The position numbers and the translations under genes are program-made. Shown here in pieces: positions 1 to 38,373 of a DNA stretch of 54,066 nt. Location: the NCBI GenBank assembly GCA_030068145.1, contig JAPJBO010000148.1, positions 272,409 to 326,474 of the forward strand, in the 5' to 3' direction. The stretch is from Diplonema papillatum. Lineage: Eukaryota. The notes below the pieces were generated by a model. It was not told the origin of the DNA, did no database searches, and was given only the letters and a program-made list of their open reading frames with translations. How positions within the stretch are numbered: the stretch's first letter is position 1; each line of letters starts with the position of its first letter.

Positions 1-100
1 CTGACCCCGTACGGACCCCGTACGGACCCCGTACGGACCCCGTACGGACCCCGTACGGACCCCGTACGGACCCCGTACGGACCCCGTACAGACCCCAGAC
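1..100. repeat. 11-bp tandem repeat GACCCCGTACG (8 perfect units at 3-90 plus degenerate units 91-100); telomere-like, with the C-rich strand 5'->3' at the left window edge
   Basis: Direct reading: ct + (gaccccgtacg)x8 then gaccccgtaca/gaccccagac. The array is cut by the window start. The G-rich complement (CGTACGGGGTC) would run 5'->3' toward the edge, as expected for a left-end telomere. Confidence 0.6.
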
Positions 101-199
101 CTGTGTTTTGCCAACTAGTATACCTGTCATCACTAAAACCAACCACTATTCATCTTGAAACCACCAGGAATACACTTGAGAAAAAGCAACAAAACAAAC

Positions 200-2152
200 A
201 TGTTTGCCCTCTTTGGGTTGCTGATGTTCCTGGCCTGGCTGCCAGGTGGTGAAGCAGCTAATGGAAGGGGAATGAAAAGAAGGCATCCAGACCCAGCTGG
301 TCCACCTCCTTTGCAACTCCCCCTGGCTGAAGGTGTTGCACTGTCAAGGGTCAAAAAAGAAGAAGAAGAAGACGATGAAGAAGAAGAAGACGATGAGCCT
401 GTCCCTGTTGCAAAACACAGGCAGAGAGCAAAGCAACGCAAAGTAAGCTCTGTTGCCATGAAGAAGAAGGAGAAGACAGAAGCCTACAGCGGTGTGTTCC
501 GGAAACGGGTTGAAGCAAAGCCGAAATTTGGAGTTCTGCAGCTCATCCGGCAGGGAGATGCTGCAATGGCAGAAAAACTGCAGGAGTACGGAATCATACC
601 TGCTGTCACCTGCAAGTGTGGCAGGGAACTGACTAACATGGTTTGGAAAGGAGCAAACACCACCCGGCAGCTCAACTGGCCTGTCTTCTTTTGCAAGCAC
701 TGTCACCTATCGTTCTCAACAGCAGCTATTCTCAGCACAGCTCTTGGCATATCAGACAAAGGAGGCCCACTCAAGGTCACTCTTGGTGACTTTTTCTGCT
801 TGGTACTTGGGTTTGTTTTTGTTGCCAAAAAAGCATTGACACACGCACTTTGTTCGTTTACTCGCCAGACCGTCTGTAAATGGGAAGCAGGATTCAAGTG
901 CATTGTTGGTGGTGAGGTTGAGCAAATGGAAGCTGCAAACCTTCCTTTGGGAGGTCCTGGGGCAATAATTGAGATTGATGAGTTCTCAATTGGGGGTAGA
1001 GTGGTGAAGGACAAGACAGGAAAACCAGTTGGATATGAATACCTGCGTTTTGTGGGTATTGTTGTCAGGGGCACCCCCTACTTCTTAATTCGTGAGCTAC
1101 CCCGGAAGGTGCAAAAACTTGTCAACCCTGATGACACTGTAGCAAGTCCATCAGGACACAAGGACTTTACCAACAAAAAAGGACACCCTGTTGCGCCACC
1201 ACCACCCCCGATTTCAAAGGAGGAGTTCAAAGCCCTCCTTGATGAGGAGGTTTTGGAAATTGGAACCCCAGAAAACCCGTTGTGCATTGCTACAGACGGT
1301 GCTGCCACTTATCGTTCAATGCTTGATCCAGCATCGGCTTCGTTCTACTGGGGGGAACACAAGCACTGTGTGAACTATGCTTGGGTTAACCATGGGAAGG
1401 AAGAATGGTGCAAAGTTGTTGAAGATGATGACACCCCTCCTGTTGAAAACTGCCTTGCAGAGACATGTGTTGCAGAAATCCTTTCGAAGGTGTCTGAGCC
1501 TTCTGAACCTGGTTGCCCCACTGCTGCAGGGGGGAACTTCTCACCCATGTACCGGGACAAGAAGTGGATTACAGGTACCCAGAAGGCAGATGGTTTGTGG
1601 AAGCATCTTAAGACTACTCTTAAAACCAAAAACTGCAAGAACCGCAGCAAACCATCTGAGATTCTGATGAATCAGTGGAGGCTGATGAACACAGGTCTTG
1701 ACCTAGTGCACCTTTTTCTCTGTGCTTTGGGGAAAAAGATTTCACAGATGGAACTGGTGGTCCAGGCTGAAGCTACTGAGGTAGAACAACAAGCTGTTGA
1801 GTTGCCACCACAGCCTGACACCTTGCTGCAGCTGCTGGCACAGCCCGGCATGTGTGACCAGATGCTATCCCAGCCTGGGGTGCGTGACATGTTGATGCAA
1901 AGACTTGCCCAGGAAAAGCCTGAGTCTGATGATGAAGGCAGCCAAGAGAGCCCAATTGTTGACCCACAACAAAATGTGGACAGCAGCCAGTACAATCCTT
2001 TTGTATTGCCTGCAACCCAAAGGGAGGAAGACAATGATGACCAGCCTAGTGTCCCAATCTTTGTTCAGCCACAAGGACAGCCACAGAACCAAGGAGCTGT
2101 GTACAACCCATTTTCTGGTCGCAGGAGGCTGCAGTTGAGAAGACCACAGTGA
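200..2152 (+). CDS. Merlin / IS1595-superfamily DDE transposase with an N-terminal zinc-ribbon
   Basis: Uninterrupted ORF 155..2152; first ATG at 200. Protein has a CxCG...(22)...CKHC zinc-ribbon (CKCGRELTNMVWKGANTTRQLNWPVFFCKHCHLSFS). It also has the IS1595/Merlin catalytic signatures IEIDEFSIGGR...FVGIVVRG, LCIATDGAATY, YAWVNHGKEEW and ITGTQKADGLWKHLK. An acidic EEEEDDEEEEDDE stretch lies N-terminally and a Q/P-rich tail C-terminally. Confidence 0.7.
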   Translation: MFALFGLLMFLAWLPGGEAANGRGMKRRHPDPAGPPPLQLPLAEGVALSRVKKEEEEDDEEEEDDEPVPVAKHRQRAKQRKVSSVAMKKKEKTEAYSGVFRKRVEAKPKFGVLQLIRQGDAAMAEKLQEYGIIPAVTCKCGRELTNMVWKGANTTRQLNWPVFFCKHCHLSFSTAAILSTALGISDKGGPLKVTLGDFFCLVLGFVFVAKKALTHALCSFTRQTVCKWEAGFKCIVGGEVEQMEAANLPLGGPGAIIEIDEFSIGGRVVKDKTGKPVGYEYLRFVGIVVRGTPYFLIRELPRKVQKLVNPDDTVASPSGHKDFTNKKGHPVAPPPPPISKEEFKALLDEEVLEIGTPENPLCIATDGAATYRSMLDPASASFYWGEHKHCVNYAWVNHGKEEWCKVVEDDDTPPVENCLAETCVAEILSKVSEPSEPGCPTAAGGNFSPMYRDKKWITGTQKADGLWKHLKTTLKTKNCKNRSKPSEILMNQWRLMNTGLDLVHLFLCALGKKISQMELVVQAEATEVEQQAVELPPQPDTLLQLLAQPGMCDQMLSQPGVRDMLMQRLAQEKPESDDEGSQESPIVDPQQNVDSSQYNPFVLPATQREEDNDDQPSVPIFVQPQGQPQNQGAVYNPFSGRRRLQLRRPQ

Positions 2153-2159
2153 TTCTTTA

Positions 2160-2345
2160 TTTTTTTCCTTTTCTTCCTCCCCTGTTCATTCTGTTCAGAA
2201 TGGGTGTTTCTTAGCACCATCCCTGATCTGCAGTAAAAAATACCAAAAAAAAAAAAAAAACACATTGAGACAAAAAAAATACCAAAAAAAAAACAAAAAA
2301 AAACAGAAAAAGGGATCCTCTCCCCACCAAAAAAAACCAAAAAAA
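2160..2345. repeat. A-rich low-complexity region with multiple poly(A) tracts
   Basis: Runs of 8-16 A separated by short words (ataccaaaaaaaaaaaaaaaacacattgagacaaaaaaaatacc...). Confidence 0.6.
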
Positions 2346-2399
2346 AACCTTAAAAAGAGAGGGGTGGAGATTAGGGGGGCTGGCTATGCCGCAAGTCCT

Positions 2400-2801
2400 C
2401 GACACTCCACCTGAAAAAAAAAAACGCGCCACGTAGTCTACCACCCTCTTGAGGCTCTGGTGGTGAGGAAATGTCTACCATGCAGGGTCAAAACCTTGTG
2501 TCTTGTCATGCTACACAATCAATTACCTATACTTAACGCTGAACCATGGTTTTTGGTGGTTCAGTGTTAAGTATAGGTAATTACCTATACTTAACATTGA
2601 ACCACCCAAAATCGCGGTTCAATGTTAAGTATAGGTATGGGTTCAGCGTTAAGTATAGGTAATTACCTATACTTAACATTGAACCGCCCAAAATCACGGT
2701 TCAATGTTAAGTATAGGTAATTACCTATACTTAACATTGAACCACGATTTTGGGCGGTTCAATGTTAAGTATAGGTATGCTACGCATACTTTACACATGC
2801 C
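2400..2801 (-). repeat. 402-bp hairpin-rich terminal block of a DIRS-like element (copy 1)
   Basis: By eye, identical to 8160..8561. It contains a lone MITE-type TIR (2479-2505) and four consecutive ~57-bp hairpins with stem TTACCTATACTTAACATTGAACC (2523-2580, 2581-2637, 2663-2720, 2721-2777). Their loops are mutually complementary (cccaaaatcgc / gcgattttggg). Confidence 0.8.
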
Positions 2802-3550
2802 ATGGCGGTGTCTACATGTGTTAGTTGCCGAAACACGCCCATGCCCTGGAAAAGAGTCGCTATCTCCGAGGTCAGATCGCCCGTTATGACCGTCCAACGT
2901 GAGGGGGAAAAGGGATTTGCACGTTTGCCCTTTGGGGTCGTGTCCCAATCTATCACAACTTCCTCTTTCCGCACCAGTATGAATTGATGGTGCTTGAGAG
3001 CTGCGACCTCCCCCCACCTGCTTGCTGTCTTCCAAGCCACGAAAGCTGCTAGTCGTAGGGGTGGTTGCTGTTCTCGCGCCCACTCTAATAGAAGTGTTTT
3101 GCTTATCGGTAACGCTTGGTGGCTGGGAATATTTCCTCCAGTGGCTCGGAGAGCCCGAGCTAGATTCAAGATCGGGCGGTTGTCCAGCTCCAAGTACCCC
3201 AACATTGCTGAGATACCTTTGGCATACGACAACTGCGCTTGGGGACTGACACGGGTTGCCATGACGGACAATGCCGCTGTGTCCGCGTTGAGAGGCAGAC
3301 CCTGGGCCGATGTCCACCTCAGCAATCTGTTCCATAGACTCTGTCTTTGGGCCGTTGTGGAACGTGCCCACATTACTGATACAAGGTTTTGGAGCATATT
3401 CCCCGCTTCGTTTGCTGTCACCATTCCTTCTTTCGTACGTACTGTCTTCTTTCCAATTCCTTGAGCTAGATTTTGAAGTACTGCTTTGGCAAAAGTGTTT
3501 ATTGCACCTTTTTGAAGCCGTGTTTCTATTGGAAATGCGACGGAGCGCAT
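2780..3550 (-). pseudogene. DIRS-like tyrosine recombinase, N-terminal and core part, 3'-truncated where it runs into the hairpin block
   Basis: Protein contains ...LRLAAFVAWKTASRWGEVAALKHHQFILVRKEEVVIDWDTTPKGKRANPFSPSRW..., homologous to the YR ORFs at 7286..7819 and 11746..12180. It lacks the HxxR...Y catalytic end because the ORF terminates inside the repeat block at 2780-2801. Confidence 0.6.
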
Positions 3551-3670
3551 TTCTCGCGTTTGTTGACTTCGGAAGTCCAGCGACTTTTTGACAAAGCAGG
3601 TCTTCTGTAGGCCTAGCTGCGGGATGTAAATCGATGTGACTGGCTGAGGGGAAGGCAGAAAGACGGCCAG

Positions 3671-4681
3671 TCAATGCTGTCTCTCTGCCCTGACGTTTCC
3701 CTGCCCTTTAAATCCTTTGGCAGAAGCAGTGTACTGTCGCTTCCCTTTCCCCTTCTTGCCACCGAGTGCAATAGCAGCTTTTGCGACTTCGTCTGTGGAA
3801 GACTGCTCCAACTTCAACTTGTCCAACAGTGCACCTCGGGGCACTCGGTCTCGCACATGGTAGTGATGCACCCGCAAATTGCGGAGCAGCACATTGCCCA
3901 AGTCTAACAGGGGAGTCGACTCCCATCCCGCTGTCATGGCGCAACCAATCACCCACAGACGAAGCTGGTCAAAAGCTGCTTCCAAATCTTTCCCGCCTTG
4001 CAATCCAGTCAAGCCGCTCACATACTGTGCTTGCAATGCAAAAATCAACCCATCGGGGCTGCTCGATTCAAAAATTTCCTTCCACTCATGCACACTCTTC
4101 ACCGCCGCTGGGTGAGACCATTTCTGTTCAGTGGCTCTCATCTTCGTCTGGGACTCTTGGTCTACATCAAACTCTTTCACGTTTTCTGGTTTATGTTGGA
4201 ACTGCAATTGCTGTTCCAACCCCATCAGTCGTGCTTCCATCGTACTCCTCAAAAGATTCATCTCACGCTGAGCTGCCTCAGTTTGATGAACAGAAGCCTC
4301 AATTAACCGGTTGTAAACCCAATCTGGATCCGGGAGCAAGAATTCTCGCTCTGCACCATCGAATGGCGAAATGCCGTGCAGATAATTGAAGGCTTCGCTC
4401 AATCGCACACGAAAAGGTGTTTCTCCCTCCGCAACTTCACTGACTTTCCTCAACACTCCTGCATGCATGAGCCACCCGCTCGTGTCATTTTTACGTCTGC
4501 AGGAGTACACAACTAACTTTCCAAGAAGGGACTCTGCCTGATCCAGGAGCATACGCTCCGACATCTCGACTGGCGCTGGGAACCCCTGTCCTGCTGTTGC
4601 AGAGGGGGATGTCGCCCTTGCACGTGCAGTGCGCACTTCACTCAGTGTAAACGGGGCAAGGTTGGGTTCGGGGCTCGACAT
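3671..4681 (-). CDS. Gag-like coiled-coil ORF (336 aa) upstream of the YR gene in the same element
   Basis: Clean 336-aa ORF on the same strand immediately 5' of the YR ORF. It has a charged, helical, coiled-coil-like composition and a C-terminal basic GGKKGKGKRQ tail. No specific family recognised. Confidence 0.4.
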   Translation of the reverse strand: MSSPEPNLAPFTLSEVRTARARATSPSATAGQGFPAPVEMSERMLLDQAESLLGKLVVYSCRRKNDTSGWLMHAGVLRKVSEVAEGETPFRVRLSEAFNYLHGISPFDGAEREFLLPDPDWVYNRLIEASVHQTEAAQREMNLLRSTMEARLMGLEQQLQFQHKPENVKEFDVDQESQTKMRATEQKWSHPAAVKSVHEWKEIFESSSPDGLIFALQAQYVSGLTGLQGGKDLEAAFDQLRLWVIGCAMTAGWESTPLLDLGNVLLRNLRVHHYHVRDRVPRGALLDKLKLEQSSTDEVAKAAIALGGKKGKGKRQYTASAKGFKGQGNVRAERQH

Positions 4682-5651
4682 GATGCACTAAAAGAAGAGG
4701 AAAGGAAATAGAGGTTCAGAGTCAGCAAGGATCAAACAGTCTCTTCGCCTTCGGAAGCAGCAACGAACAGCTAGTTCGAGAGTGTCGCGGCAGACGTCTA
4801 GAAAACGAAGACGAGGCACGTTACCGTGAGGATCAACAAGTCGTCCTTTAAGCCGCCCCGACGTCCCGTTTCAAGAGCCTCGGCCAATATCTGCCTTCTC
4901 CTGCTTCGCTCTTCCGGCTGCAAGATGCAGGTTGCCTCTAACAACGATGGGGATCCCGTTACAAGAACTGCGCCCAGGTGCCGATTGCTCTTCGCGGTCA
5001 AAAGCGATACGGTGGCCACAATCTTTGGAGGGTGGGCGGAAAAGAACGGGGATCGAAGTGTACGGGAGGGGTAAGGTAACCTGTGGGAGAGTGCCTTGCG
5101 ATACAGAATTCCCTCAGTTAAACTACGATGGATCCCGCGTCGTGTGGACAGCGCCAGTGCATCCGCCACGTACGCGTTCGCAGTCCGGACAAGACGGTTC
5201 CGTTCGCCGGGTGAGAGAGGGGGCTCCGAGAGGAGGGGACGTCCGCATCGCCCCGAGACCGGAGGAGGGAAGCGGTCCACGGCGTCTACTGCTTGGTCTT
5301 GCTCCTGGTTGCGTTCGTCCGCTGAGGGGCCTGGGGAGCGTCGGGGGGAAGAGCTTCGCCCGAGTGTCGGGTGCGGGGCCTCGGGCTGCGCTTCCTGGGC
5401 GGCTTCGAGGCGGGCTGCTCCTCGGCTTTCTGTAGAGCCTGGAAGACGCTCCGTAGAAACGGAGGAAACCCGGCCTCGTGCTGATGCCGGTGCTGGAGGC
5501 TGCCTGCAAGAGACCACCCGGCTTTCAGATCCCGCAAACTCGACATAAGTTCCGGGGGCAAGGGTGGGTGGCAATTTGTTTTACGTTTTAACTAGCTAAG
5601 GTTGACCTCCTGTTGGAGTGGTTCACATTGGTTCCGAGCACTGACGGCAAT

Positions 5652-7151
5652 TCAATGCGCCAATTCCCTCAGTAAACTGCAGGAATGGTCGCGGTATCTT
5701 GGCACCCGCGATGGGAGATCTGCAGGGTTCCCTTCGCTCCGCACCCAGCGGACAGAGAGTGCGCAACCAAGGGTTCGCACCCTGGCAAGACCAGAAACCA
5801 CCGCGTTGTTCAGGTCTGCGTCTCGCATGCTGAACCCTTTCCGCGCTACTCCCTGCACGGTGGTATTGTCCACCACAACATCGATCCGTCCACCGGCAAA
5901 GGCGTCCGGGATCGACATTGCCGAACGTTCGAAGGCCATGGCCTCTAGAACATTAATGTGCAGCCTCGATTCCTCGGCTGACCAGGGAGCCCCCAAGATG
6001 GTTATTTCCGCCGTACAAGAGTCCACGAGAACACCACCCCATCCCTTCTTGCTCGCATCAACGAACACTGTCAACGACGGTACAGGGAGCTTCGTCGGTA
6101 TTGCCCGTGGCCTCATGACCGCGTCTATCCAACCTTGCAAAGATGAGCGTATGCATGGAGACAGGGAAACTTGTTCCGTCGGCATCCTCGTTCCTCGGTT
6201 CAACGAGTTCGTTACTCTGCGCATGAATTTCAGCGCAAACCAGAACGAGCCGGGGAAAATGCCCGCAATTGCAGATGCGTGGAGCAGCCTGCCCCCCAAG
6301 GCTTCGATATCACCGGCAGAAAGCGACGAAGCCTGGAGCTCGTACCGCGTCGTCATCAGCTTTCTGCAAAGCTTGCTGCTCAGCGAGACCTGCGAGACAC
6401 TGTGTCGCCAGTCGACCCCGATGAATTCATAACGGGGTGCAGCCGTCCGGGAATCAGCGTCTTTCCATGTCAGCGAGCAGTCCACCGCCGTCTGGTCCAA
6501 CCGCCGCGTCGCTGCAAGAACGCACTGCCTTGAGCCAGCGTAGCGAATGTTGTCGACCCAAACATGGACAACAACTTCACCCTCAACGAGCTCCGGCAAC
6601 ACAAAGTCGGGATGCCCGGCTGACACCGCTGCCAGCGTGTGCATGAGCTCGGGCGCACATGCATGGCCCATCGGGAGACGGTTCAACTCCCACCAGCTGC
6701 CGTCGTCCGTTGTGAAACGGAACAAGTGTCGAACGGCTTTCGGGATCTCTATTGCGTAGAATCCCGTGCGGAAGTCACGAGTAGTCCCGCACTCTTCATG
6801 TACTGCGCCCAAGTAGTGGGACACGTGAGCCAACGGAACGGACGCAACATAACCGGCGGCTTCAGCCGCACGGTTTCCGTCGAGGGTCCAAAGAATGAAC
6901 CGTTGCCGAAGAGAACCGTCTTTCTCCTCAAGAACCGTGAACGGCACCGAGGCCCAGGGGCCCGGGCCTGCTGCCCTCGCGGCTATCTCGTACTCCTCGA
7001 GCTGCTTCGCGTGACCCAAAACCAGCCTCGACGGGGATCCAAGCGACGGCAGAATGCTGCTCACGTCCGGGTAAAACGTCTTCCGCCACGTGTCGTCGAA
7101 GCGCGAGCGAACGCTTTCGGTCATGCGGGCACGCAGTTTGTTGACGTCCAT
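5652..7151 (-). CDS. Reverse transcriptase - RNase H polyprotein of DIRS-like element copy A
   Basis: ATG at 7151 (..VKPMDVNKL..). RT motifs include LNRLPMGHACAPELMHTL and HVWVDNIRYAGS. The RNase H part has ITILGAPWSAEESRLHINVLEAMAF ... VDNTTVQGVARKG ... WVRSEGNPADLPSR. The ORF-track extension 7152..7832 is a non-coding read-through overlapping the YR gene in another frame. Confidence 0.7.
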   Translation of the reverse strand: MDVNKLRARMTESVRSRFDDTWRKTFYPDVSSILPSLGSPSRLVLGHAKQLEEYEIAARAAGPGPWASVPFTVLEEKDGSLRQRFILWTLDGNRAAEAAGYVASVPLAHVSHYLGAVHEECGTTRDFRTGFYAIEIPKAVRHLFRFTTDDGSWWELNRLPMGHACAPELMHTLAAVSAGHPDFVLPELVEGEVVVHVWVDNIRYAGSRQCVLAATRRLDQTAVDCSLTWKDADSRTAAPRYEFIGVDWRHSVSQVSLSSKLCRKLMTTRYELQASSLSAGDIEALGGRLLHASAIAGIFPGSFWFALKFMRRVTNSLNRGTRMPTEQVSLSPCIRSSLQGWIDAVMRPRAIPTKLPVPSLTVFVDASKKGWGGVLVDSCTAEITILGAPWSAEESRLHINVLEAMAFERSAMSIPDAFAGGRIDVVVDNTTVQGVARKGFSMRDADLNNAVVSGLARVRTLGCALSVRWVRSEGNPADLPSRVPRYRDHSCSLLRELAH

Positions 7152-7285
7152 CGGCTTGACTGCGGCCACATGCAAAGGGGACTGGCGCTCTGCCGGCGTC
7201 CGAGGCAGCCGAGTCGACCCACCGCGACGCGTCACCGAGTGTGCCCGCAGCGTCCGAAACGCCTGATCCGACCGCAGATGGCGAC

Positions 7286-7819
7286 TCAGAGATGCTTCGT
7301 CGCCTTCGCGGTTCCGAGGACCCGGGCGAGGGCGAGCAGATTGCCGCCGTAACGAATCGTTGTTTCCGAGATCGCTCCTTCCGTCCCACCCGGTTCTTCG
7401 TGCTTGGCGAGCCGGTGTACGCTGCACAGCGGGATCGAAACGCCACTCGCAATCAGGTCGAACAGACGCGTCACTGCACCCCTTTTGATGGAGTGCGCCG
7501 AGTAGCGTCGCATCTCGGGGGATCGCGTCCACATCGAATCCAGGCCCGTTGTCGTCAGAGAACACAGTTCGTCGAAGGGGGCACTCGCCTGGAACATCTC
7601 GGCCAGTTCGGGCGTCAGAGGGCCCACTATCACGGCAAACCTCGACGGTTTGAACGGGTTCCGCCGTCGGCCTTTCGGGGTTTGCTCCCAGTCGATCACG
7701 ATCTCCTCCGGCGCGACACGCAGAAACTGCTTCGAGGACAGGGCGGCAGCCTCGGCCCACCTCGACGCCGATTTCCATGCCAGCAGAGTGCACATTTTCA
7801 CCGCCGGCGCCTGCGATAA
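7286..7819 (-). pseudogene. Tyrosine recombinase catalytic domain (copy A), N-terminal half separated by a MITE insertion
   Basis: LLAWKSASRWAEAAAL...YSAHSIKRGAVTRL...TIRYGG carries the HxxR and catalytic Tyr. Homologous N-terminal residues (DRATLVQWAL) continue on the far side of the MITE at 8032-8157. Confidence 0.65.
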
Positions 7820-8031
7820 CATGCAGGGTCAAAACCTTGTGTCTTTTTAAAACGCTCCCGCGGGGCCGATGGAGCCCAAAAAAAAATTTTGGAAAAAAAA
7901 AATTATGCTCAACTTCCTCAAAAATTACTGCAGAGTTTGTTCCAAACTTTTAAAATTCAAAAACCCCACTTTTTTTCCGGAAATTTTTTTTTTGCCATTT
8001 TCAAAAAGACACAAGGTTTTGACCCTGCATG
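7820..8031. mobile_element. MITE copy M1 (212 bp, 29-bp TIR CATGCAGGGTCAAAACCTTGTGTCTTTTT, TSD ATAA)
   Basis: Perfect TIRs at both ends. The 4-bp direct duplication ATAA sits at 7816-7819 and 8032-8035. M1 lies inside the YR gene of copy A. Confidence 0.85.
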
Positions 8032-8159
8032 ATAACGCCCACTGCACAAGTGTCGCTCTGTCCACAGGTACTGCCTGAGCCCGCGGCACCGCCGCCCCCG
8101 AGTTGCGCAGTGCCGAAGCCATCATCCGCAATGGCTGGTTCTCTAATCCCATCGCCGAT

Positions 8160-8561
8160 CGACACTCCACCTGAAAAAAAAAAACGCGCCACGTAGTCTA
8201 CCACCCTCTTGAGGCTCTGGTGGTGAGGAAATGTCTACCATGCAGGGTCAAAACCTTGTGTCTTGTCATGCTACACAATCAATTACCTATACTTAACGCT
8301 GAACCATGGTTTTTGGTGGTTCAGTGTTAAGTATAGGTAATTACCTATACTTAACATTGAACCACCCAAAATCGCGGTTCAATGTTAAGTATAGGTATGG
8401 GTTCAGCGTTAAGTATAGGTAATTACCTATACTTAACATTGAACCGCCCAAAATCACGGTTCAATGTTAAGTATAGGTAATTACCTATACTTAACATTGA
8501 ACCACGATTTTGGGCGGTTCAATGTTAAGTATAGGTATGCTACGCATACTTTACACATGCC
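8160..8561 (-). repeat. 402-bp hairpin-rich terminal block (copy 2), 3' end of DIRS-like copy C
   Basis: Same sequence as 2400..2801. Its lone left TIR at 8239-8265 is matched by a right TIR at 8712-8740, giving a 500-bp TIR-bounded composite. Confidence 0.8.
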
Positions 8562-8963
8562 TGTCTCGGCTCTTGTAGGTGACCCCCCTGACCCCCCACG
8601 CAAAAATCCCTTTGGCGAAAAAAAATATTTTCGCCAACCCCTTTTCAGATTTTTTTTTTTTTTTGGCGAAAAAATTTTTTTTCACCAAAGGGAAAAACCC
8701 CTGCCATTTTCAAAAAGACACAAGGTTTTGACCCTGCATGATAAACGTGCAGTTGTGCTGCAACTGGGATTTTTAGTAGGGAATTCCAAAAAGAAGAACG
8801 GGACGTGTTGTGTGTAAACGGGGAGGGGGAACCTGTGAAGGTATGCTTGCAATATCGGAATTCCCTCAGTTAAACTACGAGAATTCCATGCATGCATGTG
8901 AACGGAAAGGGGACGCGCAGTAAAGAAGCGAAGGGGAAATCGTCTCGGCCGGGCAGGATGAAC

Positions 8964-9176
8964 CTAACCTTCCGAACGAGAACGAACCCCATCGCGTGTA
9001 AAAAACTTCCGCAACGCTTGTTCAACTACCCTCTTTCCATTCCTGGAAGAAAGCAGCTGGGGCGACATGCGGGAAGGTAAATCCGCAATATTCGACACAG
9101 AGCGCACCCAAGCAATTGTGAAGGTGGCCCCCACTTCACGCAGTCTTGACAAAGCTGCTACAATAGCCTCATTTAA
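8964..9176 (-). pseudogene. RNase H C-terminal fragment (copy C)
   Basis: ...FTIAWVRSVSNIADLPSR... matches the RNase H ends of the other copies. The upstream part is separated by MITE M2. Confidence 0.55.
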
Positions 9177-9389
9177 CATGCAGGGTCAAAACCTTGTGTC
9201 TTTTTGAAAATGGCAAAAAAAAAAAATTCCAGAAAAAAAATGGGGTTTTTGAATTTTAAAAGTTTGGAACAAACTCTGCAGTAATTTTTGAGGAAGTTGA
9301 GCAAAATCTTTTTTTTCCAACATTTTTTTTTGGGGTCCATCGGCTCCGCGGGAGCGTTTTAAAAAGACACAAGGTTCTGACCCTGCATG
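9177..9389. mobile_element. MITE copy M2 (TSD TTAA), inserted in the RNase H of copy C
   Basis: TIRs at both ends. TTAA at 9173-9176 and 9390-9393. Internal region is in inverted orientation relative to M1. Confidence 0.85.
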
Positions 9390-9399
9390 TTAAGGGTTT

Positions 9400-9615
9400 T
9401 GAGGCCATGCACATACCCTTCCTTGCTGCGGATGCTACAGTCGTGTTATCGACTTTAAAATGAACGTTATTACTCAGAAAAGCGGGAGGCAGAGCAAATA
9501 TTGCGTTGCGGAACGCCAACGCTTCTAGAATGTTGATGTGCAACAAGGATTCAGCATCAGTCCATGAATTGCCTGCGACGATTACTTCCTTAGTAGTGTT
9601 GTCGATTGCAACCAT
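9400..9615 (-). pseudogene. RNase H N-terminal fragment (copy C)
   Basis: ...SWTDAESLLHINILEALAFRNA...FKVDNTTVASAARKG... parallels the RNase H of the 5652..7151 ORF. Confidence 0.55.
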
Positions 9616-9746
9616 GCCCCATCCTCGCAGTGAAGCATCAACAAAAACATCAAATGGGGTGCATGGAAGGATATTTTGTACTTTGAGCGGTTTTCCAACA
9701 GCAGCACGCCAAACTTTTAACTCCTTTTGAACGGAAGGAGGGATAC

Positions 9747-9958
9747 CATGCAGGGTCAGAACCTTGTGTCTTTTTAAAACGCTCCCGCGGAGCCGATGGA
9801 CCCCAAAAAAAAAAGTTGGAAAAAATTTTTTTTGCTCAACTTCCTCAAAAATTACTGCAGAGTTTGTTCCAAACTTCTAAAATTCAAAAAACCCATTTTT
9901 TTTCCAGAATTTTTTTTTTTGCCATTTTCAAAAAGACACAAGGTTTTGACCCTGCATG
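9747..9958. mobile_element. MITE copy M3 (TSD ATAC)
   Basis: TIRs plus ATAC at 9743-9746 and 9959-9962. Lies between the RT and RNase H fragments of copy C. Confidence 0.85.
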
Positions 9959-10647
9959 ATACTTACAAGAGAGGAAGCGCTTCTTTTCCCGGAGTTGAGG
10001 CTGTTAATGACTCGCCGCAAGAACTTAATCGCAAACCAAAACCGACCAAGTAGTACCCCTGATACGGCGCTTGCGTGCATGAGTCGGCCTCCAAAAGACT
10101 CCAACTCTCCGGCAGTTACTTTATCAAACTGCACGCTCTCTAACTTTGACAAGAGTCTTTTTGAAGGCGAAACTTCACCTGTTGTGTGGTCAAAACTTAC
10201 CCCGATAAAATCATACACGGAGGCTGCATCCTCGCTGTCCTCCGGTTTCCAAGTCACACCGGCTCCCTGCGCCGTCTTGTCCAGACGGGCTGTTTCTGCC
10301 TTTACCGACCTTTCGCTCCCCGTTAGACGAATATTGTCTATCCAGGTATGGACAGTCACGTCTTGGGCCCTGTATTCCTCCTTGACATAGTCCGGGTGCC
10401 CTCCAATGGTTGATGTCAGGGTGTGCATAAGTTCTGGAGCACAACTGTGTCCCATAGGCAACCGGGTTAGTTCGAACCATCTGCCTTTATCGTCGGTGTA
10501 TCGAAAATGCTTCCGCGAACCCTCAGGTATTTCTACCTGATAGAATCCACACCGTAAGTCCCTCAGGGATGCACACTCGTTCGATACTACATGTATGTAC
10601 TTAGAAACATGTTCTAACGGCACCTGAGCTTTGTATGAAGCCCTCAA
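9959..10647 (-). pseudogene. Reverse transcriptase fragment (copy C)
   Basis: ...FELTRLPMGHSCAPELMHTL...VTVHTWIDNIRLTGS... is homologous to the copy-A RT. Confidence 0.6.
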
Positions 10648-11258: not shown

Positions 11259-11470
11259 CATGCAGGGTCAAAACCTTGTGTCTTTTTGGAAATGGCCAAA
11301 ATTTTATTTCCAGAAAAAAAATGGGTTTTTTGAAATTTAAAAGTTTGGAACAAACTCTACAGTAATTTTTGAGGAAGTTGAGCAAATTTTTTTTTTTCCA
11401 AAAATTTTTTTAGGGCTCCATCGGCCCCGCGGGAGCGTTTTAAAAAGACACAAGGTTTTGACCCTGCATG
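11259..11470. mobile_element. MITE copy M5 (TSD ATAA)
   Basis: TIRs plus ATAA at 11255-11258 and 11471-11474. Confidence 0.85.
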
Positions 11471-11534
11471 ATAAATATCGCGTCACTTCCCCAGTCTTCA
11501 GGGCACGCGCTACGCAATTGGATCGCCTCCATAT

Positions 11535-11745
11535 CATGCAGGGTCAAAACCTTGTGTCTTTTTGGAAATGGCCAAAAAAAAAATTCTGGAAAAAAAATGG
11601 GTTTTTTGAATTTTAAAAGTTTGAAACAAACTCTGCAGCAATTTTTGAGGAAGTTGAGCAAATTTTTTTTTTCCAAAAATTTTTTTAGGGCTCCATCGGC
11701 CCCGCGGGAGCGTTTTAAAAAGACACAAGGTTTTGACCCTGCATG
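11535..11745. mobile_element. MITE copy M6 (TSD ATAT)
   Basis: TIRs plus ATAT at 11531-11534 and 11746-11749. Sits at the 3' end of the copy-C YR fragment, just after the catalytic Tyr. Confidence 0.85.
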
Positions 11746-12180
11746 ATATCTTATGGTCATTTCGGGAAGACCCGATGCCCCTTGATGTTTCGCTAAACGC
11801 GCTATAAGCCAATCTTGTAGAGGGACACCTTGAGACAACAGTTGGAAAAGATGTGAAAGAGCTCCTCGCTTGATACTGTGACCGGAGAACGGCCGCATTC
11901 GAGGATCCTTGTTCCAAAGCGCGTTTAGCTCGGCTGTGCTTACTTGGGTCAGACTTTGAAAACTGCCTAAGCTTCGGACAAGTGTCGCAATTACTCTGGT
12001 CAGGTCGCCTTTTATCACTGTCCAGCGTGACGGAGAAAAAGGGTTGGCCCATTTTCCTTTCGGGGTTGTGCCCCAGTCCACAATCACCTCCTCTTCCTGG
12101 ACCAGTAGAAACTGGGACGATCCCAGAGCTGCGACTTCTCCCCACCTGCTCGCCGACTTCCATGCTAATAGAGCCGCCAT
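11746..12180 (-). pseudogene. Tyrosine recombinase fragment (copy C): MAALLAWKSASRWGEVAAL...GHSIKRGALSHL...MTIRYH
   Basis: Has the HxxR and catalytic Tyr. Bounded by MITEs M7 (upstream) and M6 (downstream). Confidence 0.6.
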
Positions 12181-12184
12181 GGTA

Positions 12185-12397
12185 TCATGCAGGGTCAAAA
12201 CCTTGTGTCTTTTTGGAAATGGCCAAAATTTTATTTCCGGAAAAAAAATGGGTTTTTTGAATTTTAAAAGTTTGGAACAAACTCTGCGGTAATTTTTGAG
12301 GAAGTTGAGCAAAAAAAATTTTTTCCAAAAAAAATTTTTGGGCTCCATCGGCCCCGCAGGAGCGTTTTAAAAAGACACAAGGTTTTGACCCTGCATG
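12185..12397. mobile_element. MITE copy M7 (TSD GTAT)
   Basis: TIRs plus GTAT at 12181-12184 and 12398-12401. It is 5 bp upstream of the YR Met codon of copy C. Confidence 0.85.
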
Positions 12398-13802: not shown

Positions 13803-14400
13803 CTATGCGGAACTATGCGCAAACTGTGCGGAAAAGCCCTAGTTGTTTGGGCTGTTCCGCATACTTTGGGGTCGTTCCGCATAGTTGTTTGGGCTTTTCC
13901 GCATAGTTGCGCATAGTTGCGCATAGTTGTTTGGGCTGTTCCGCATACTTTGGGGTCGTTCCGCATAGTTGCGCATAGTTGCGCATGTCCGGCCATAGAA
14001 TCCAGACCAGACACTACGTTCTGCCACGTCTTCTCCAGCGACCTCGGCATGCACCCAGGTCCTTCCCCATTCAGAGTTTGCAGCCCTCGGATATATACGC
14101 GTCGAGGCCGTTCATCGCCTTGACTCTGCTCGAGGCATATGTGTCTGCGCCCGTCCCGGTGTCCATCGCAGATGCAATTCGCACCCTTTTGGGCACCGTC
14201 GTCTCACCTCTTCCTCGATAGGCGGCAACGGGCCCGTCGAGCAGCCCCTGTTCCTCTGCCAGCTCGATCAGAAACTGCTCGCACGCCTTCGTCGCCGACA
14301 GCCAGAGTGCTTCCACTTTCCCTGGTGCCGCATCGCCGAAGCGATTCACCAACAACTCTTCCGCCCTTGCCGCTGTCCGCCCCTCGTCCACCTTGCTTAT

Positions 14401-16955: not shown

Positions 16956-18875
16956 ATGCCAGCGGTGAAGGAGATGCCCCAGCTCGATGGCGAAGTGGAG
17001 GCCGCAATCAGTTGTTCCTCGGCAACACCGGTTCATGAGGCGCAGCGTATGCGCTCACAGTTCTTGGCTCGCTGGAGGAAGAGGTCTGACGAGCTGTCGC
17101 CCCACGAAGGAGATCCTTGTCACGTCGAACTACTCGGCGAGATGCTTCGCGACCTGCGCATCTCAGGCGCTGACGATCTCCTGTTCCACCTGAAGACGGG
17201 TTGCCCCATGTCAGGCGTGGTCGGGTACGGAGGGCTCTACACTCCGGGACCCCCCGGGGCACCTGAGATGACAGAGGAGGAGTTGGTCCGGCGTCAGGGC
17301 GACGTTCTAGCGAGGTCGGTGCGGGCCATCCGTTCCGACTCCAAGGATAACAGGCTGGCGATATGGCGCTCCGTGCAGAAGGAGGTTGCTGCCGGTTATA
17401 TGGTAGCGGTTCGTCCCCCAGCTAACGCCGTCTATCTCAGGAGGTTCCTGATTCGCCAAGTGAAGTTTGACGACGAGGGCTCCCGCATCAAGGAGCGGGC
17501 CTGCGACGATGGTCGCATGGCACTGGTGAACAAGTCCGTCCACATGTCGACGCCGGTGAAGTTGGACACGACGGATGTGTACGTGGAGGTGGCCAGGCGG
17601 GTGGCTTTCGGACGACCCCGCCGCCACGTTCCGGTCTGTGGGTCTGGACCACAAGGACGCGTACCGCCAGTTGCGCGCCAGGAACGACAGGCTGTGCAGG
17701 TGCGTCGTCGTGGAGAACCCTGAGGATGGTGAGGTGGCGTACTTCCGGATGGAGCGGCTATCCTTCGGCGAGACAGCGGCTGTTGTGCACTACAACGCTT
17801 TCGCAAGGATCCTGGCGAGGTTGGTCCGCCGCGGGCTCCGGCTTCCGTTGTGCCAGTATTACGACGACTTCGCCGCCCCGACCCTGGCCTCGGACGATCG
17901 GGCGCTGACTGACGTCCTGGAACTTCTCCAGGACATTCTTCGGACGTCATTCAACGAGGAGAAGACGTCGGCAAACAACTACTTTCGCCATCTCGGCTTG
18001 ATGTTTACCATCAAAACGGAAGCAGTGAGGTCGGAATCTCAGGGCCCAGGAGGCAGGGTCTCATTCACATGCTGGAGGGAATCCTGAGCCGCGATTCCTT
18101 GTCGCCGGGGGAGGCTGCGTCGTTGGCAGGTAAGCTCGCCTTCGCGACTTCGGCGCTCTTCGGCAGGATTGGCCGCGTGCCACTCCAGCCGATCTACAGG
18201 CGCTCCAATGCGTCATCGACTTTTGCAGGGTTCAAGTTAGGTGTCGATCTTCGAGCATCCGTGAGATGGTGGGCAAGCACGCTGGCCGCAGGAGAGTTGT
18301 GTTTCAGAAGATCTGTGCCCCTTCGTCTAGTGCAGCCCGGCGTAGGCACCAGATATGTCCTCTTCACCGATGTCTGCCTCTTCGGTCTTGGCGCGGTCTT
18401 AGCTACGGTCGTAGATGGCTTTCCTACCGCGGTCGAATACTTCGCGCATCCTGTCCCCCCGGCGGGCTCAGAGCTGCAGATCCACCACCTCGAGTTTGCT
18501 GCGGTCTCGGTTGCGTTCTCCCTGTGGTTCAATGACAGATTCGACTTCACCGTCTCAGTCTGGGTTGACAACAGCATCGTGCTGGGCAGCCTGATACAAG
18601 GGCGGACAAAGGCTAAAGAGCTTCTTCTTCCGGTTCATGCGTTCTGGGAGCGTCTAGCTAGGTCCAGAGGCGATGCGTGGTTCGAGAGGGTACCGGGGGA
18701 GGACAACCTCTCTGACCTTCCCAGCCGGCTCAACCATGCCTGGGCGGATATTCCATTTAAGGGTCTACGACCCAAGAGAAGGGACGTAGAACAACGGATC
18801 GTCGACGAAGCGATCGCGGATGTGCTCGGGGGCAGTCTGTCCGGCCTGGTATCTTCCGCGTCGCCTGAGCCGTGA
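16956..18875 (+). pseudogene. RT - RNase H (DIRS/LTR-like clade) split over three frames by two frameshifts
   Basis: RT domain 1 reads VYLRRFLIRQVKFDDEGSRIKERACDDGRMALVNKSV. Domain 2 reads FRSVGLDHKDAYRQL, followed by MERLSFGETAAVVHYNAFARIL and the YYDDF box. RNase H reads ELQIHHLEFAAVSVAFSLW...VWVDNSIVLGSLIQG...FERVPGEDNLSDLPSR. The frame changes near 17575-17720 and 18069-18087. Confidence 0.6.
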
Positions 18876-19595: not shown

Positions 19596-20091
19596 ATGGG
19601 TGCCATCTCGTCGATGCAGCGGGTTCTCCTGCTGCTGTTATGTTCAGTGCTTGGGGGAGCCACCTTGGAAGACGATCCGACGCCTGCTCTCTGGTTTCCG
19701 AAGGAATTCGTACAAATGGAAATGCTGATGGCTAACGACATTCAGATCCCGGAGGAGCTGCAGCGGGAAGCCAACCCGTTGGGTGCTGTTTCCTTCATGC
19801 ACAAGTCACGGTTGTGGGTGGATGGAAGGGTAAACTTCGTTATCGATACCCTGACAACCAACCCTGACAACGCGGCTCCTGATTTCTTGCCTGAAGATGA
19901 TCCGCGCATCCTAGGTGCCGTCGCACACTGGGAAGATGTCACATGCATTCGTTTCAACAGGTGCCTCACTGTTGCATCGTGTGCTTGGCCATTCATCCGT
20001 TTCCGGTCAGACCTCGACGCGTGTAACTCTCCCCTGGGCACCGGCGGATGGGGCATTAACAACATCAATCTCGCCAGCGCTTGCACCTTGG
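19596..20091 (+). CDS. Astacin-family zinc metalloprotease (M12A), exon 1: signal peptide plus N-terminal half of the catalytic domain
   Basis: ATG at 19596. The hydrophobic MQRVLLLLLCSVLGGATL signal is followed by LWVDGRVNFVID, AVAHWEDVTCIRF and FIRF...ACNSPLGTGGWGINNINLASACTLG. The exon ends in a GT donor at 20092 (acc ttg g|gtgtgtgc), phase 1. Confidence 0.75.
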
Positions 20092-20437
20092 GTGTGTGCT
20101 CCCCCCCTCTGGTAACACCACTACTCTTGCTTTTCCAACCACTCATCAACTTTACTTCTCAATTTTTCCGTGCTTGTGTAAGCCGCCCCATTTGCTGAAT
20201 TTGTTCTGGTTTCCTAGGAAACAGACAGATATCTGTTGCCCTCTTAGCTCGCCGCTCTGTTAAATCATGTTGAAGAATCGAGTAGCAAGCTTGTGGCGGA
20301 GTCGACCATCCATTCCACGGGCCACGACGCGCCACCAACACATACGTAGAATTTTACCCTTTGCACTTAAGTCGTGATGTATTGTTGCCATCATCCATTG
20401 CGTCGTATGTTCAAGAAAACGGCTTAATCAATCACAG
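20092..20437 (+). other. Phase-1 GT-AG intron (346 bp) of the astacin gene
   Basis: Donor GTGTGT at 20092 and acceptor ...AATCACAG at 20430-20437. Splicing restores the canonical astacin spacing GC..G(G)SVIHEIGH. Confidence 0.65.
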
Positions 20438-23064
20438 GATCCGTCATCCACGAAATCGGACACAGTTTGGGTCTTTCCCACGAGCAGTCGAGGAACGACC
20501 GCGACAATTACGTGTACGTGGACTACTCACAGATCAAGCCAGGCGCCGAGAGAAATTACGACAAGACAGGGCCGAACGGGCGAGATCTCGGGCCGTATGA
20601 TTATAGAAGCATCATGCACTACTCCTCAGTCGGGTTTGCTGTCGGGAGCTTGCCGGCCATCGTTTCTCCCGAACCTATCGGTCAACGTTCGCAACTCTCC
20701 AACGGGGATATCGCGGCAATCCATTTCCTATACAATTTCTGCCAAGCCTACGACACTCCGAAATGCGTGGCATCCAGAGATACCAGCCAGACCTTGCTGG
20801 TTCCTCACTCGACTGAATTCGTTGTTGAGGTTAACGCAGAGTGGGCAGCTTCCTCGCAGATGATCGTAACTTATCCCACTACGACGGCGCCGGGGTCTCA
20901 GTTTTCCATCACACCCGGTAGCACCGTGGCAGACAGTGTGAAAACCTTTCTGTCATTTACTCCGTCTTCTTCGGATGCAGGTCAGATATTCACACTGGGA
21001 GCCATGTTCACCGCTGCGGAAAACAGCGCGCTATCGGCGACGTGCATTACGACAGTGCAAGTAGCTGACTCGGACGCCGTTTGCTTCGGCAAGTCTAAAA
21101 CGGATCCAACGGTCTGTTCTGGGAGGGGTGAGTGCACCACGGATCCGCTTCAGCCGTGCGTTTGCGCCTCTGACTTCGGCGGCATCCAGTGCGCCGGATA
21201 TGCAAACTGCCCTGCGAACCATTTCTACGCCTTTGACGAAGTCGACACGTTGTGGTCCGGTAACCTAGCTTCACTCGACGGCAGTTTCAAGGTATCTGGC
21301 TCTTCCATGAAGCTTAACGGGTATACCTTCCTTAACGTGGATCCCAGTGGTGTGTTTTCATGGATGACCTTCCACTTCGCGGCGAACGCATCTGGTGAGC
21401 AACTCGGGTTCTACGACACGGCACAAGGCAGCTGCTTTCATCTGACTTTTGCTGATCTTATTCTTGTATCAGGGATTTCGACTGGGGTGCCGTTCGAAGT
21501 GAACCGTTTCTTCTTCATCGAAGTCCTTCTGCTACCGTCTGCGAATCAGCTTTCGCTTAGAATCGATGGAAATGAGGTGGCCACTGGCATTTCCATGGCC
21601 AATCAGTGCCACACAAGCGGTGTGGCTTGGGTGGCCGCGTTCGTTCCGGAAAGCCACGTGGCGTGGCTTGACGAGTTCAATTTCTACTGCCACTCGCATG
21701 TGTCCCTGACGGGTACCTTGTTGGATGCGGATCAAAGCGAGCTTGTTGCTGGCGGATTGTCTCTTACCCTCACAATCGATGGAGACACATGGGTCGACTC
21801 GGAACAGACCAAAATCGACCTCATCGAAGGCATGGCGTCCGACTACCCCGCTCCAGGTGGCTGGGACGACTGGAAATTGATCATGTTAGACCCGTCTCTT
21901 GTGACCATTGCCGGAAACGAGATGGTAATTGGTCCATTGAAGCCCTTCCCGGGGTACACGGAGAGTTTGTCGGTGAATGTTAACATCAAGATCAAAGAAA
22001 CAATGATTACCACTGGTGATCTGCCGCTGGGTCACCAGGACTTGACATTTATGATCGAAGGACTATGCTATCGGTCATGGTTCTACGGGTTCGACGACAC
22101 AGCCGCTACCATCAAAGACGGCTTCACTTTTTCTACGACCATTGTCGCTGAAGGCGCGGCTTCGGTACAACTTTCATCCGCTGACCCTGACAGGAGTCTT
22201 CCGTTGTATGTAGGTGGGATACGCCCGGCATCAGTCAGCTATTGGGCTCGGTACGCTGCGGACAATCCTGGGGGGGCTTCAACGTACCATACGGTCGTGG
22301 CCAGAAGTCGCGAAGGGGGGAGTTTTCAGTTTCTGACAGGATTCTCCTCAAAGTTCGCTGCTTATGTGACCAGTCCCGTGCAGGGCGGAACCGCCATTCC
22401 AAACCAGTGGTACTTCATCGAGTGGACCATCGACTGGAGCGCGAGGACAGTGTCGTTCTCGGTCGACGGGGCGCAAATTATTGCCAATGTGGCGCTGCCC
22501 CCTGCTGCTCAGTTCAGCTCCGTCGACTCCTTCCTGACGTACGCGTGGAGTTCTCCCAGCTATTTTGACTCTCTTCGGGCGGACTGCCCGATGCGGCCTC
22601 CAGCGTTCACCGTGTCGCCAGCCTCCTTCGCCCCTTCTTTCGTTCCTAACTTCGAGTTCTTCAGAGGGTCCGACCCCCTTTCCCTCAATGATGCCATTGC
22701 TGTTGTGCCGGGGGCATCGACAGACTGCAGCGCCGTGAACACGGCGTGCGCTTCCTTGGGCGCTTGTTCTTCTCTTGCGGGCTTTTTGGCTGAGGCGGAG
22801 TTCGGCATAGCTTGGCACGAAGGTGACTTCACCGGTCTTGCTCCGGAAACTACATACCGGGTTTGCTATCGTATCTCGGCCTCGGGCAGTTTCGAGCTCC
22901 TCGAGTCAAGTTTCACGACAAGCGCAGGTATGTTACTCACACACCCAAATAGCCGGACCCTAATCGCGTATACAAAGGTGCTGTACCCAACGACAAACAG
23001 GAGCGGTTGTAGCATTACTTTGCTTTCAAGCATACAAGCGCAACTTGCTACAGAAGTTCAGTAG
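20438..23064 (+). CDS. Astacin metalloprotease, exon 2: zinc site HEIGHSLGLSHEQSRNDRD, Met-turn SIMHY, then an EGF-like module and a large LamG/ConA-like region
   Basis: The continuous ORF runs to TAG at 23062-23064. It contains HExxHxxGxxHEQxRxDRD and YDYRSIMHY. The EGF-like stretch reads CSGRGECTTDPLQPCVCASDFGGIQC. About 600 aa of beta-rich sequence follow (KLNGYTFLNV...GFYD...) with no recognisable repeat contamination. Confidence 0.8.
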
Positions 23065-28000: not shown

Positions 28001-28053
28001 GCCACGACGGCGACGACGATGACCAAAAGCGCTCGAAGCCCGGCCGACACTGA
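25007..28053 (+). CDS. Putative Pro/Thr/Asn/Ala-rich (PPTNA)n mucin-like repeat protein; the reading frame hops three times inside the array (near 26160, 26340, 26480). Either a pseudogene or an assembly error
   Basis: In the + strand PPTNA frame the unit variation falls on third codon positions (synonymous). The degenerate flanks stay P/T/A/S/V-rich. The frame ends at a stop at 28051-28053 after an acidic DGDDDD tail. No ATG or signal peptide lies upstream (the ORF-track start at 25007 is TTG). The minus-strand frame (GGAFV)n fits the same third-position pattern, so the coding strand is not settled. Confidence 0.35.
25075..27900. repeat. ~2.8 kb tandem array of a 15-bp unit CCACCAACGAATGCG (~185 units, more degenerate toward 27450-27900); no stop codons in any of the six frames
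   Basis: Direct reading. Unit variants differ mainly at unit positions 9 and 15 (acg/aca, gcg/gca) and at 10-12 (aat/act). Confidence 0.9.
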
Positions 28054-37480: not shown

Positions 37481-37888
37481 ACTATTGTGCAGTCTATCGT
37501 CACAGATTCGTCATCTGGTGATTCCTCGAGCTCGTCGTCAAACTGCACATCGGATGTTAAGCGCGCACCGGAGACAAACAGTACGCGGGCAAGAAGCGAC
37601 CGAAGCATGACACGACGCGTGCAAAGAGATAGTCTGTAGCGTCTATCTTCACAGATTGTTGCTGCATAACAAGTTCAAACTACTACCACTACTGGCTAAA
37701 AGCACTTGGAACGTTGCGCTTCCCTGCTTTCTGAGATAACGGGAGTTCGGTTTGTTGAAGGCATTATGGTCTTTCAGTCGCGATCCGCGCTGTATCAACA
37801 AAGACCTCTTTGCGGATCAGTTCCCGAGGATCGAAGTAGAGTTGCAGAGAAAGCGTTTCCACTCAGTAGCTACTGCGGTAGGTGGGTT

Positions 37889-38373
37889 CCAATCAGTATG
37901 GCATCAGGGAAGCTCCATATTCAGTAGTAGGTAGTCGGGTACTTGTTAGCAGGGGTCCAATCAGTATGGCATCAGGGAAGCTCCATATTCAGTAGTAGGT
38001 AGTCGGGTACTTGTTAGCAGGGGTCCAATCAGTATGGCATCAGGGAAGCTCCATATTCAGTAGTAGGTAGTCGGGTACTTGTTAGCAGGGGTCCAATCAG
38101 TATGGCATCAGGGAAGCTCCATATTCAGTAGTAGGTAGTCGGGTACTTGTTAGCAGGGGTCCAATCAGTATGGCATCAGGGAAGCTCCATATTCAGTAGT
38201 AGGTAGTCGGGTACTTGTTAGCAGGGGTCCAATCAGTATGGCATCAGGGAAGCTCCATATTCAGTAGTAGGTAGTCGGGTACTTGTTAGCAGGGGTCCAA
38301 TCAGTATGGCATCAGGGAAGCTCCATATTCAGTAGTAGGTAGTCGGGTACTTGTTAGCAGGGGTCCAATCAGA
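37889..38373. repeat. 68-bp tandem repeat x ~7 (CCAATCAGTATGGCATCAGGGAAGCTCCATATTCAGTAGTAGGTAGTCGGGTACTTGTTAGCAGGGGT)
   Basis: Direct reading; the copies appear identical. Confidence 0.9.

Follow-up and report, generated by a model that had tools for sequence, protein, structure and literature searches.

A divergent Merlin/IS1595-superfamily transposase homologue beside a telomere-like array in Diplonema papillatum

A stretch of 54,066 nucleotides (nt) from Diplonema papillatum (contig JAPJBO010000148.1 of assembly GCA_030068145.1, forward-strand positions 272,409 to 326,474; hereafter the window) carries near its start an intact open reading frame (ORF) that encodes a homologue of the Merlin/IS1595 superfamily of transposases (200..2152, + strand, 650 amino acids [aa], stop included). 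The product is a very divergent member of this superfamily, with a putative catalytic triad of three aspartates (DDD), two insertions, and about twice the usual length. An earlier, sequence-only reading had called it a Merlin/IS1595-type transposase, and this call is right in substance as judged from remote homology (hhalign 99.6% against Merlin and 98.5% against IS1595) and from a modeled fold, whereas direct profile recognition failed. We consider it reasonably probable that the ORF is the transposase gene of a Merlin-like element that is selfish, is specific to diplonemids, and lies in a repeat-rich chromosome-end region.

Remote homology, predicted fold, and domains

The frame is open from a TTG at 155 to 2152 (+; 665 codons) and, from its first ATG at 200, encodes 650 aa up to the stop codon at 2150-2152, with no internal stops or frameshifts, as the sequence-only reading had it. 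At a stop frequency of ~3/64 per codon, the probability of 650 stop-free codons arising by chance is ~1e-14.

When a profile of the ORF product and its relatives (here called the family) was searched against 5.8 billion proteins, only two matches lay outside the family, and both carry PF12760 and PF12762. Profile-profile alignment (hhalign) of the family with each of these two IS1595 proteins gave 97% (E values of ~1e-11 and ~4e-11 over 220 and 233 columns). The match was 98.5% with 17 bacterial IS1595 transposases (E = 2.2e-15, 234 columns) and 99.6% with 11 eukaryotic Merlin transposases taken from the S3 Appendix of PMC8101967, including sequences from Euglena, Bodo, and Perkinsela (E = 9.7e-25, 275 columns); the control alignment of IS1595 with Merlin gave 99.9% (E = 1.8e-34, 257 columns). 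The aligned span starts at a helix preceding the zinc ribbon, takes in the helix-turn-helix (HTH) region, and covers the whole catalytic core, and the order of zinc ribbon, HTH, and RNase H-like core is that found in both IS1595 and Merlin.

The putative zinc ribbon (611..703, +) has the cysteine spacing C138-x-C140 ... C165-x-x-C168, aligns in hhalign with the CPxCG...CxxC ribbon of IS1595/Merlin, and forms beta-strands in the structural model (core residues 48-74). Of the CxxC...CxxC ribbon first read from the sequence, the second pair agrees, but the first pair is CxC. Scanning with PF12760 gave only subthreshold matches, in two relatives (e.g., P0006, E = 0.014). A helical, HTH-like DNA-binding region (aa ~195-247; 782..940, +) precedes the RNase H-like catalytic core (aa 251-514; 950..1741, +), which is delimited by invariant columns, hhalign, and the model. 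Each of the catalytic blocks listed in the sequence-only reading is present in the core, as EIDEF..GG (D260, nt 977-979), ATDGAATY (D366, nt 1295-1297), VNHGKEE (N397, H398), and GTQKADGLW (D464, nt 1589-1591). In hhalign, D260, D366, and D464 are matched to the D, D, and E of the IS1595/Merlin catalytic triad. The catalytic and flanking motifs, including the third-position D, are invariant in the seven closest members.

The single-sequence AlphaFold model was unusable (predicted local distance difference test score [pLDDT] of 36), and AlphaFold2 with the family alignment gave a pLDDT of 76 and a predicted template modeling score (pTM) of 0.74. In the latter model, ribbon-like strands and a three-helix region are followed by an RNase H-like core in the canonical order beta1-3/alpha1/beta4/beta5/alpha4, with D260 on beta1, D366 just past beta4, and D464 where the following helix begins. 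The modeled fold matches DDE transposases and integrases; the BFVD viral fold library returned one unnamed significant match together with weak integrase matches. Sequence similarity to PFV and HIV integrase, Hermes, Mos1, Sleeping Beauty, and ISCth4 is not detectable, and these proteins differ from the family in their DNA-binding modules and insertions.

Two segments interrupt the core. An insertion between beta3 and alpha1 (aa ~306-340; 1115..1219, +; ...PSG..F.N....PPPPPIS...) corresponds to a gap in the IS1595/Merlin templates in hhalign, is proline rich, is kept across the family, and is predicted to be ordered (pLDDT 81-96). The other insertion separates beta5 (VNH) from the D464 helix (aa ~408-454; 1421..1561, +), is variable, is left unaligned by hhalign, and is predicted to be disordered (pLDDT <50; core residues 309-355). 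The doubling of the usual transposase length comes from these two lineage-specific insertions together with an N-terminal extension and a Q/P-rich tail. The extension begins with a hydrophobic, signal-peptide-like segment in the translation (MFALFGLLMFLAWLPGGEAANG, aa 1-22; 200..265, +) and includes an acidic patch (EEEEDDEEEEDDE, aa 54-66; 359..397, +), which is followed by a basic stretch resembling a nuclear localization signal and has comparable counterparts in relatives P0001, P0003, and P0018. The tail (aa 521-650; 1760..2149, +) contains 23 Q and 16 P among 130 residues and is not conserved; past aa ~530, the relatives give no BLASTP alignment to the ORF product. Both the acidic patch and the tail had been pointed out from the sequence and could be located. 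A hydrophobic N terminus of similar appearance occurs in the closest D. papillatum relative, DIPPA_20292 (P0001, residues 1-24), a likeness seen by eye, the BLASTP alignment of the two proteins starting at aa 70. The Monocercomonoides Merlin transposase M.sp_LSRY01001039.1 (supplement of PMC8101967) begins MKCLFFTCLWVLILVVMQF, which is signal-peptide-like too.

From the sequence and the model, the ORF probably encodes a full-length, catalytically competent DDD transposase. The zinc ribbon and HTH region would bind the DNA of the element ends, and the DDD site may carry out Mg2+-dependent cleavage and strand transfer, that is, cut-and-paste transposition.

Merlin was already known in Discoba from Euglena, Bodo, and Perkinsela (PMC8101967), and the paper on the D. 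papillatum genome, the first for a diplonemid, reports ORFs of TATE, MULE, and Helitron-like type and no Merlin (PMC10161547). Merlin-like sequences now extend to diplonemids, in a lineage that standard domain models miss and that combines double size, a DDD triad, a proline-rich core insertion, and, in the copies examined, no terminal inverted repeats (TIRs). We regard this as a result of annotation and classification and not as a surprise, the lineage being an unusual variant and not a new kind of transposase. To our knowledge, no Merlin structure has been solved and no Merlin biochemistry has been done, and the superfamily is among the less-studied groups of eukaryotic DNA transposons.

Eukaryotic Merlin transposases (Feschotte 2004; surveyed in PMC8101967) share this domain order of ribbon, HTH, and catalytic core, and their blocks IGG...vEiDE, tD.w..Y, vNH, and hT(N/Q)..E..W..K align with the family; Euglena Merlins (HTQ.VE) also share the TQ of the GTQ..D block. 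In contrast to Merlin, the family is missed by PF12762, has D in place of E as the third residue, and carries an extra ordered insertion of ~35 aa between D1 and D2 and a disordered one of ~50 aa between VNH and D3. Neither 5'-GG TIRs nor target-site duplications (TSDs) of 8-9 bp were found in the window or at the related loci of European Nucleotide Archive (ENA) assembly ERZ25333236, and the family's range is, so far, diplonemids plus that assembly. Merlin transposases measure ~250-430 aa, compared with 520-770 aa for members of this family, which agrees with the initial remark that the usual Merlin transposase is short and that 650 aa with extra domains is unusual. Bacterial IS1595 transposases (PF12760 plus PF12762; e.g., P0020, P0021, and P0099) have the same domain order, a CxxC...CxxC ribbon, and the aligning blocks vEvDEt, mTDe..Y, VNH, and HTNsIE. 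From these, the family differs in its low identity (~18%), roughly twofold length, eukaryotic occurrence, DDD triad, and lack of insertion sequence-like ends.

Relatives in diplonemids

An exhaustive phmmer search of 1.84 billion (1.84e9) cluster representatives recovered only 16 relatives. All of the named ones are hypothetical proteins of D. papillatum (DIPPA_20292, 63742, 56611/56700, 65223, and 53908/55806), comprising seven locus tags in five clusters of at least 90% identity, located on different contigs; the others come from ENA assemblies. The family has been seen so far almost only in diplonemids. Its members share the blocks GGPG..E.DEFS.G, Y.R.IG...RG, LP, PSG..F.N....PPPPPIS, TDGA..YRS, VNHGKEE, and GTQ..DG.W..LK. 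A word-indexed homologue search of the 5.8 billion proteins with the single sequence found nothing, and exact-sequence look-ups of the ORF product and of five further ORF translations from the window gave no entry. PDB sequence searches gave only noise, whether run with the single sequence or the profile, and a scan of JGI metagenomes with the family profile yielded no relatives.

The flanks of relatives were studied in ERZ25333236, which has megabase contigs and in which seven family loci lie on seven contigs. Two of them are intact, L003 (762 aa) and L001 (696 aa, 71% aa identity to L003), and the ratio of nonsynonymous to synonymous substitution rates (dN/dS) between these paralogues is 0.34, with a dS of 0.43. 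The remaining five are degraded: L004 has a frameshift, L005 is split by a poly(A) retroposon with a TSD of ~11 bp and has a frameshift in addition, L006 is truncated at its 5' end, L007 is fragmented by several insertions, and L008 represents a third paralogue (35% identical). Five of the seven loci (L003 to L007) carry copies of a unit of ~4.35 kb that are 96-99% identical on different contigs and share a precise right edge, four of the five being broken. Since these units are multicopy, near identical, mostly decayed, and dispersed over contigs, they look like a selfish repeat and not like a single domesticated gene.

The left edge of the ~4.35-kb unit falls inside a (TATACACAG)n microsatellite, where no duplication is visible. 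The right edge (...CACCGGAGTGGCC) is precise and, in four copies, the same, with a different sequence after each, and consists of a palindromic cluster of 16-nt CGGTGCACAGGGGGCG motifs that abuts different satellites. In L003, this module holds about seven forward and five reverse copies of the motif (13856-14122), and it may serve as an end that binds protein or forms a hairpin. The CGGTGCACAGGGGGCG module was also located at L003 8274-8540, L005 13839-14105, L006 12741-13007, and L007 12834-13100 and 20222-20414, and it stands alone elsewhere, in part within tandem repeats of 357 bp.

For three copies, the distance to the contig end is 16, 42, and 120 kb on contigs of 1.1-1.7 Mb, which suggests a subtelomeric bias. 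L004 directly follows a (GGGTTTRC)n array of >9 kb (L004 1-9127) whose polarity is wrong for a terminal telomere. A family-specific adjacency to tandem arrays was considered and is unsupported at present; we do not count such adjacency as significant because ERZ25333236 is packed with many different satellites and the L004 array has the wrong polarity. Other long satellites of short period are (TCCTTGCACAGCA) x 545 at L005 14106-21176 and a 20-bp unit x 217 at L003 17534-21951, and gene callers read these satellites as "proteins" of 3,500-4,400 aa.

The 1.66-kb insertion in the L005 gene copy (8558-10219) was likewise considered as a Merlin-type miniature inverted-repeat transposable element (MITE). 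This was rejected because its A23 tail and ~11-bp TSD (ATGCTCAAAAG) mark it as a retroposon; the same element recurs at L003 3994-5346 and L004 13632-14500.

Selfish element or host gene

Several observations weigh against a selfish Merlin-like element. Elements of the Merlin/IS1595 type have TIRs of 24-462 bp with terminal 5'-GG and produce TSDs of 8-9 bp. In the window, a comparison of 97-199 with 2153-2520, and with 8538-9300 beyond the neighboring retroelement-like unit, gave no inverted repeats above shuffled controls (the best inverted matches to the downstream flanks had scores of 19 and 16, and the shuffles reached maxima of 22, 23, and 31), so the absence of detectable TIRs noted from the sequence is borne out. 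Around the related ERZ25333236 copies, no TIRs or TSDs were seen at the edges of the ~4.35-kb unit either, and neither the window nor these copies thus bears a TIR/TSD mark of transposition. No second gene copy was found across the window, where the gene is single copy, and no relative more than 50% identical to the ORF product was found in any collection searched. In D. papillatum, the homologues have been annotated as ordinary genes (with two isoforms in one case), an observation that would be compatible with domestication as well. A hydrophobic N terminus is odd for a nuclear enzyme.

Other points concern the family assignment itself. The sequence-only reading expected the IS1595 Pfam profile to match, and this expectation failed: PF12762 (DDE_Tnp_IS1595; CDD cl01481) and PF12760 (Zn_ribbon_IS1595) matched neither the ORF, nor its subsegments, nor a construct with the insertions cut out. 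In a scan of a 26-sequence set with PF12762, only the two bacterial controls matched, and NCBIfam and PHROGs scans of the ORF product gave no IS1595/Merlin match. The third catalytic position is read as Asp and not Glu because D464 aligns with the E of IS1595/Merlin (HTN.iE). Recognition by PF12762, TIRs, and the glutamate of the triad are therefore all lacking, and we place the ORF as a divergent variant inside the superfamily.

For a selfish element, the ends would have to be unconventional or not recognizable from one copy, and on the 5' side of the window they may have been lost beside the terminal 11-bp array described below. Only 104 bp of unique spacer, a putative 5' untranslated region without a detectable TIR (97..199, +), separates this array from the ATG, and the 3' flank (2153..2398, +) is A rich, has no TIR, and gives way at 2399 to the retroelement-like unit. 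If the element is truly mobile without TIRs, it would be mechanistically interesting.

The ORF may instead be a domesticated transposase, a Merlin-derived host gene without TIRs that serves, for example, to bind or cleave DNA at repeats or at the ends of chromosomes; we regard this as possible but improbable. The extra N- and C-terminal regions would then be host-acquired modules, and the case would be a further recruitment of a transposase in Euglenozoa. The lack of TIRs and of TSDs within the window and among relatives, the intact ORF with all of its catalytic residues, the gene annotation of the D. papillatum homologues with two isoforms for one of them, and the dN/dS of 0.34 between the ERZ25333236 paralogues are all consistent with it. 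So is the N-terminal extension, which resembles that of DIPPA_20292 by eye (32-40% overall identity between the two proteins). There is also precedent, since conserved Merlin copies without TIRs in Perkinsela, Stentor, and Symbiodinium have tentatively been called domesticated (PMC8101967). However, a domesticated gene is expected as a single copy without decayed copies, and five of the seven ERZ25333236 copies are degraded, with L003 to L007 96-99% identical on different contigs and four of these five broken. D. papillatum itself has seven locus tags in five sequence clusters, and the window copy lies in a transposon-rich, gene-poor end region. Moreover, GC content at third codon positions (GC3) is 0.48 in the ORF and 0.62 in the neighboring astacin-like protease gene, which lends weak support to a non-host origin. 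The sequence-only reading had offered a telomere-replaced end or domestication; the multicopy, mostly degraded, TIR-less relatives favor a selfish element with unconventional or unrecognized ends over a single-copy domesticated gene.

In the case of a telomere-replaced end, chromosome breakage together with de novo addition of 11-bp repeats would have removed the left end of an autonomous Merlin-like transposon, and the retroelement at 2399 would have displaced its right end, an account that we consider unlikely. The ORF would then be an immobile remnant that has not yet decayed. The start of the window is occupied by a tandem array, (GACCCCGTACG) x 8.5 (3..96, by Tandem Repeats Finder), which occurs nowhere else in the window, ends 104 bp before the ATG, has degenerate inner units, and presents its C-rich strand 5'->3' inward as at a left telomere. 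On the other side, the retroelement-like unit, which has direct terminal repeats of 379 bp, starts 246 bp past the stop. Against this account, the array is telomere-like and at most a candidate telomere. A literature search for its unit as a telomere gave no match beyond unrelated primers, and the available text of the diplonemid genome papers gives no telomere sequence. In addition, no TIR-like sequence lies beyond the retroelement, and truncation is not needed to account for the absence of TIRs because full-length ERZ25333236 copies lack them too. The core TACGGG(G) of GACCCCGTACG is common to the (GGGTTTAC/GGGTTTGC)n arrays of ERZ25333236.

Less probable again is a diplonemid Merlin-derived lineage without TIRs that is tied to tandem arrays or chromosome ends, either by a noncanonical form of mobility or as a nuclease that the host has recruited to work on such repeats. 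Hints in this direction are the position of the window copy 104 bp from an array, the (TATACACAG)n left edge and palindromic right edge of the ~4.35-kb unit, and the three copies near contig ends.

Finally, that the ORF encodes no transposase, its motifs being a chance resemblance in an unrelated protein, would fit the absence of matches in direct scans of Pfam, NCBIfam, PHROGs, and PDB sequences but is highly improbable given profile-profile matches across 234-275 columns in the same domain order, a predicted fold matching DDE integrases and transposases, and motifs that are invariant across the family.

Surroundings of the gene in the window

The 17 kb beyond the ORF (2.4-19 kb) contain the retroelement-like unit, ORF fragments resembling reverse transcriptase (RT) and recombinase, and MITEs. 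The unit (2399-8537) is bounded by identical 379-bp direct terminal repeats (2399-2777 and 8159-8537), within which are palindromic subrepeats of 58/82 bp. Its ORFs (2780-3550, 3671-4681, and 5652-7832, all on the - strand) resemble by eye the RT-RNase H and tyrosine recombinase of DIRS/VIPER/TATE-type elements, and a Pfam scan of them gave no match. Related fragments are located at 9928-10647, 11440-12348, and 16956-18875, the last with a weak RT_RNaseH_2 match.

A MITE of ~215 bp is present in at least 11 copies between 7817 and 14858, with a 29-bp TIR (CATGCAGGGTC... (CATGCAGGGTCAAAACCTTGTGTCTTTTT)), two internal sequence variants, and 4-bp TSDs (ATAA, TTAA, ATAC, CTGT, ATAT, GTAT, ATAG, and TTAT). 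We considered these MITEs as nonautonomous partners of the ORF transposase and rejected them because they produce TSDs of 4 bp instead of 8-9 bp and because the flanks of the ORF do not contain their TIR. A lone half of the MITE TIR stands within each retroelement terminal repeat (2476-2504 and 8236-8264).

The first clear host gene beyond the ORF (~19.6-23 kb) encodes an astacin-family metalloprotease homologue in two ORFs (19596-23064; Pfam Astacin, E = 1e-18 for 20467-23064), and this split points to an intron or a frameshift in the interval 20198-20467. Further along, an array of a 15-bp coding repeat (25102-27875, ~2.4 kb) encodes (APPTN/APPTT)n; the ORF that holds it (25007-28053, +) is mucin-like and rich in Pro/Thr, and AT and GC skew are strong there. 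The remainder of the window includes clean satellites with units of 68 bp (37884-38372, x 7.2, 99% matches), 12 bp (GCCGCAGGCTTT; 42846-43319, x 39.5, 99% matches), and 63 bp (52651-53413, x ~10).

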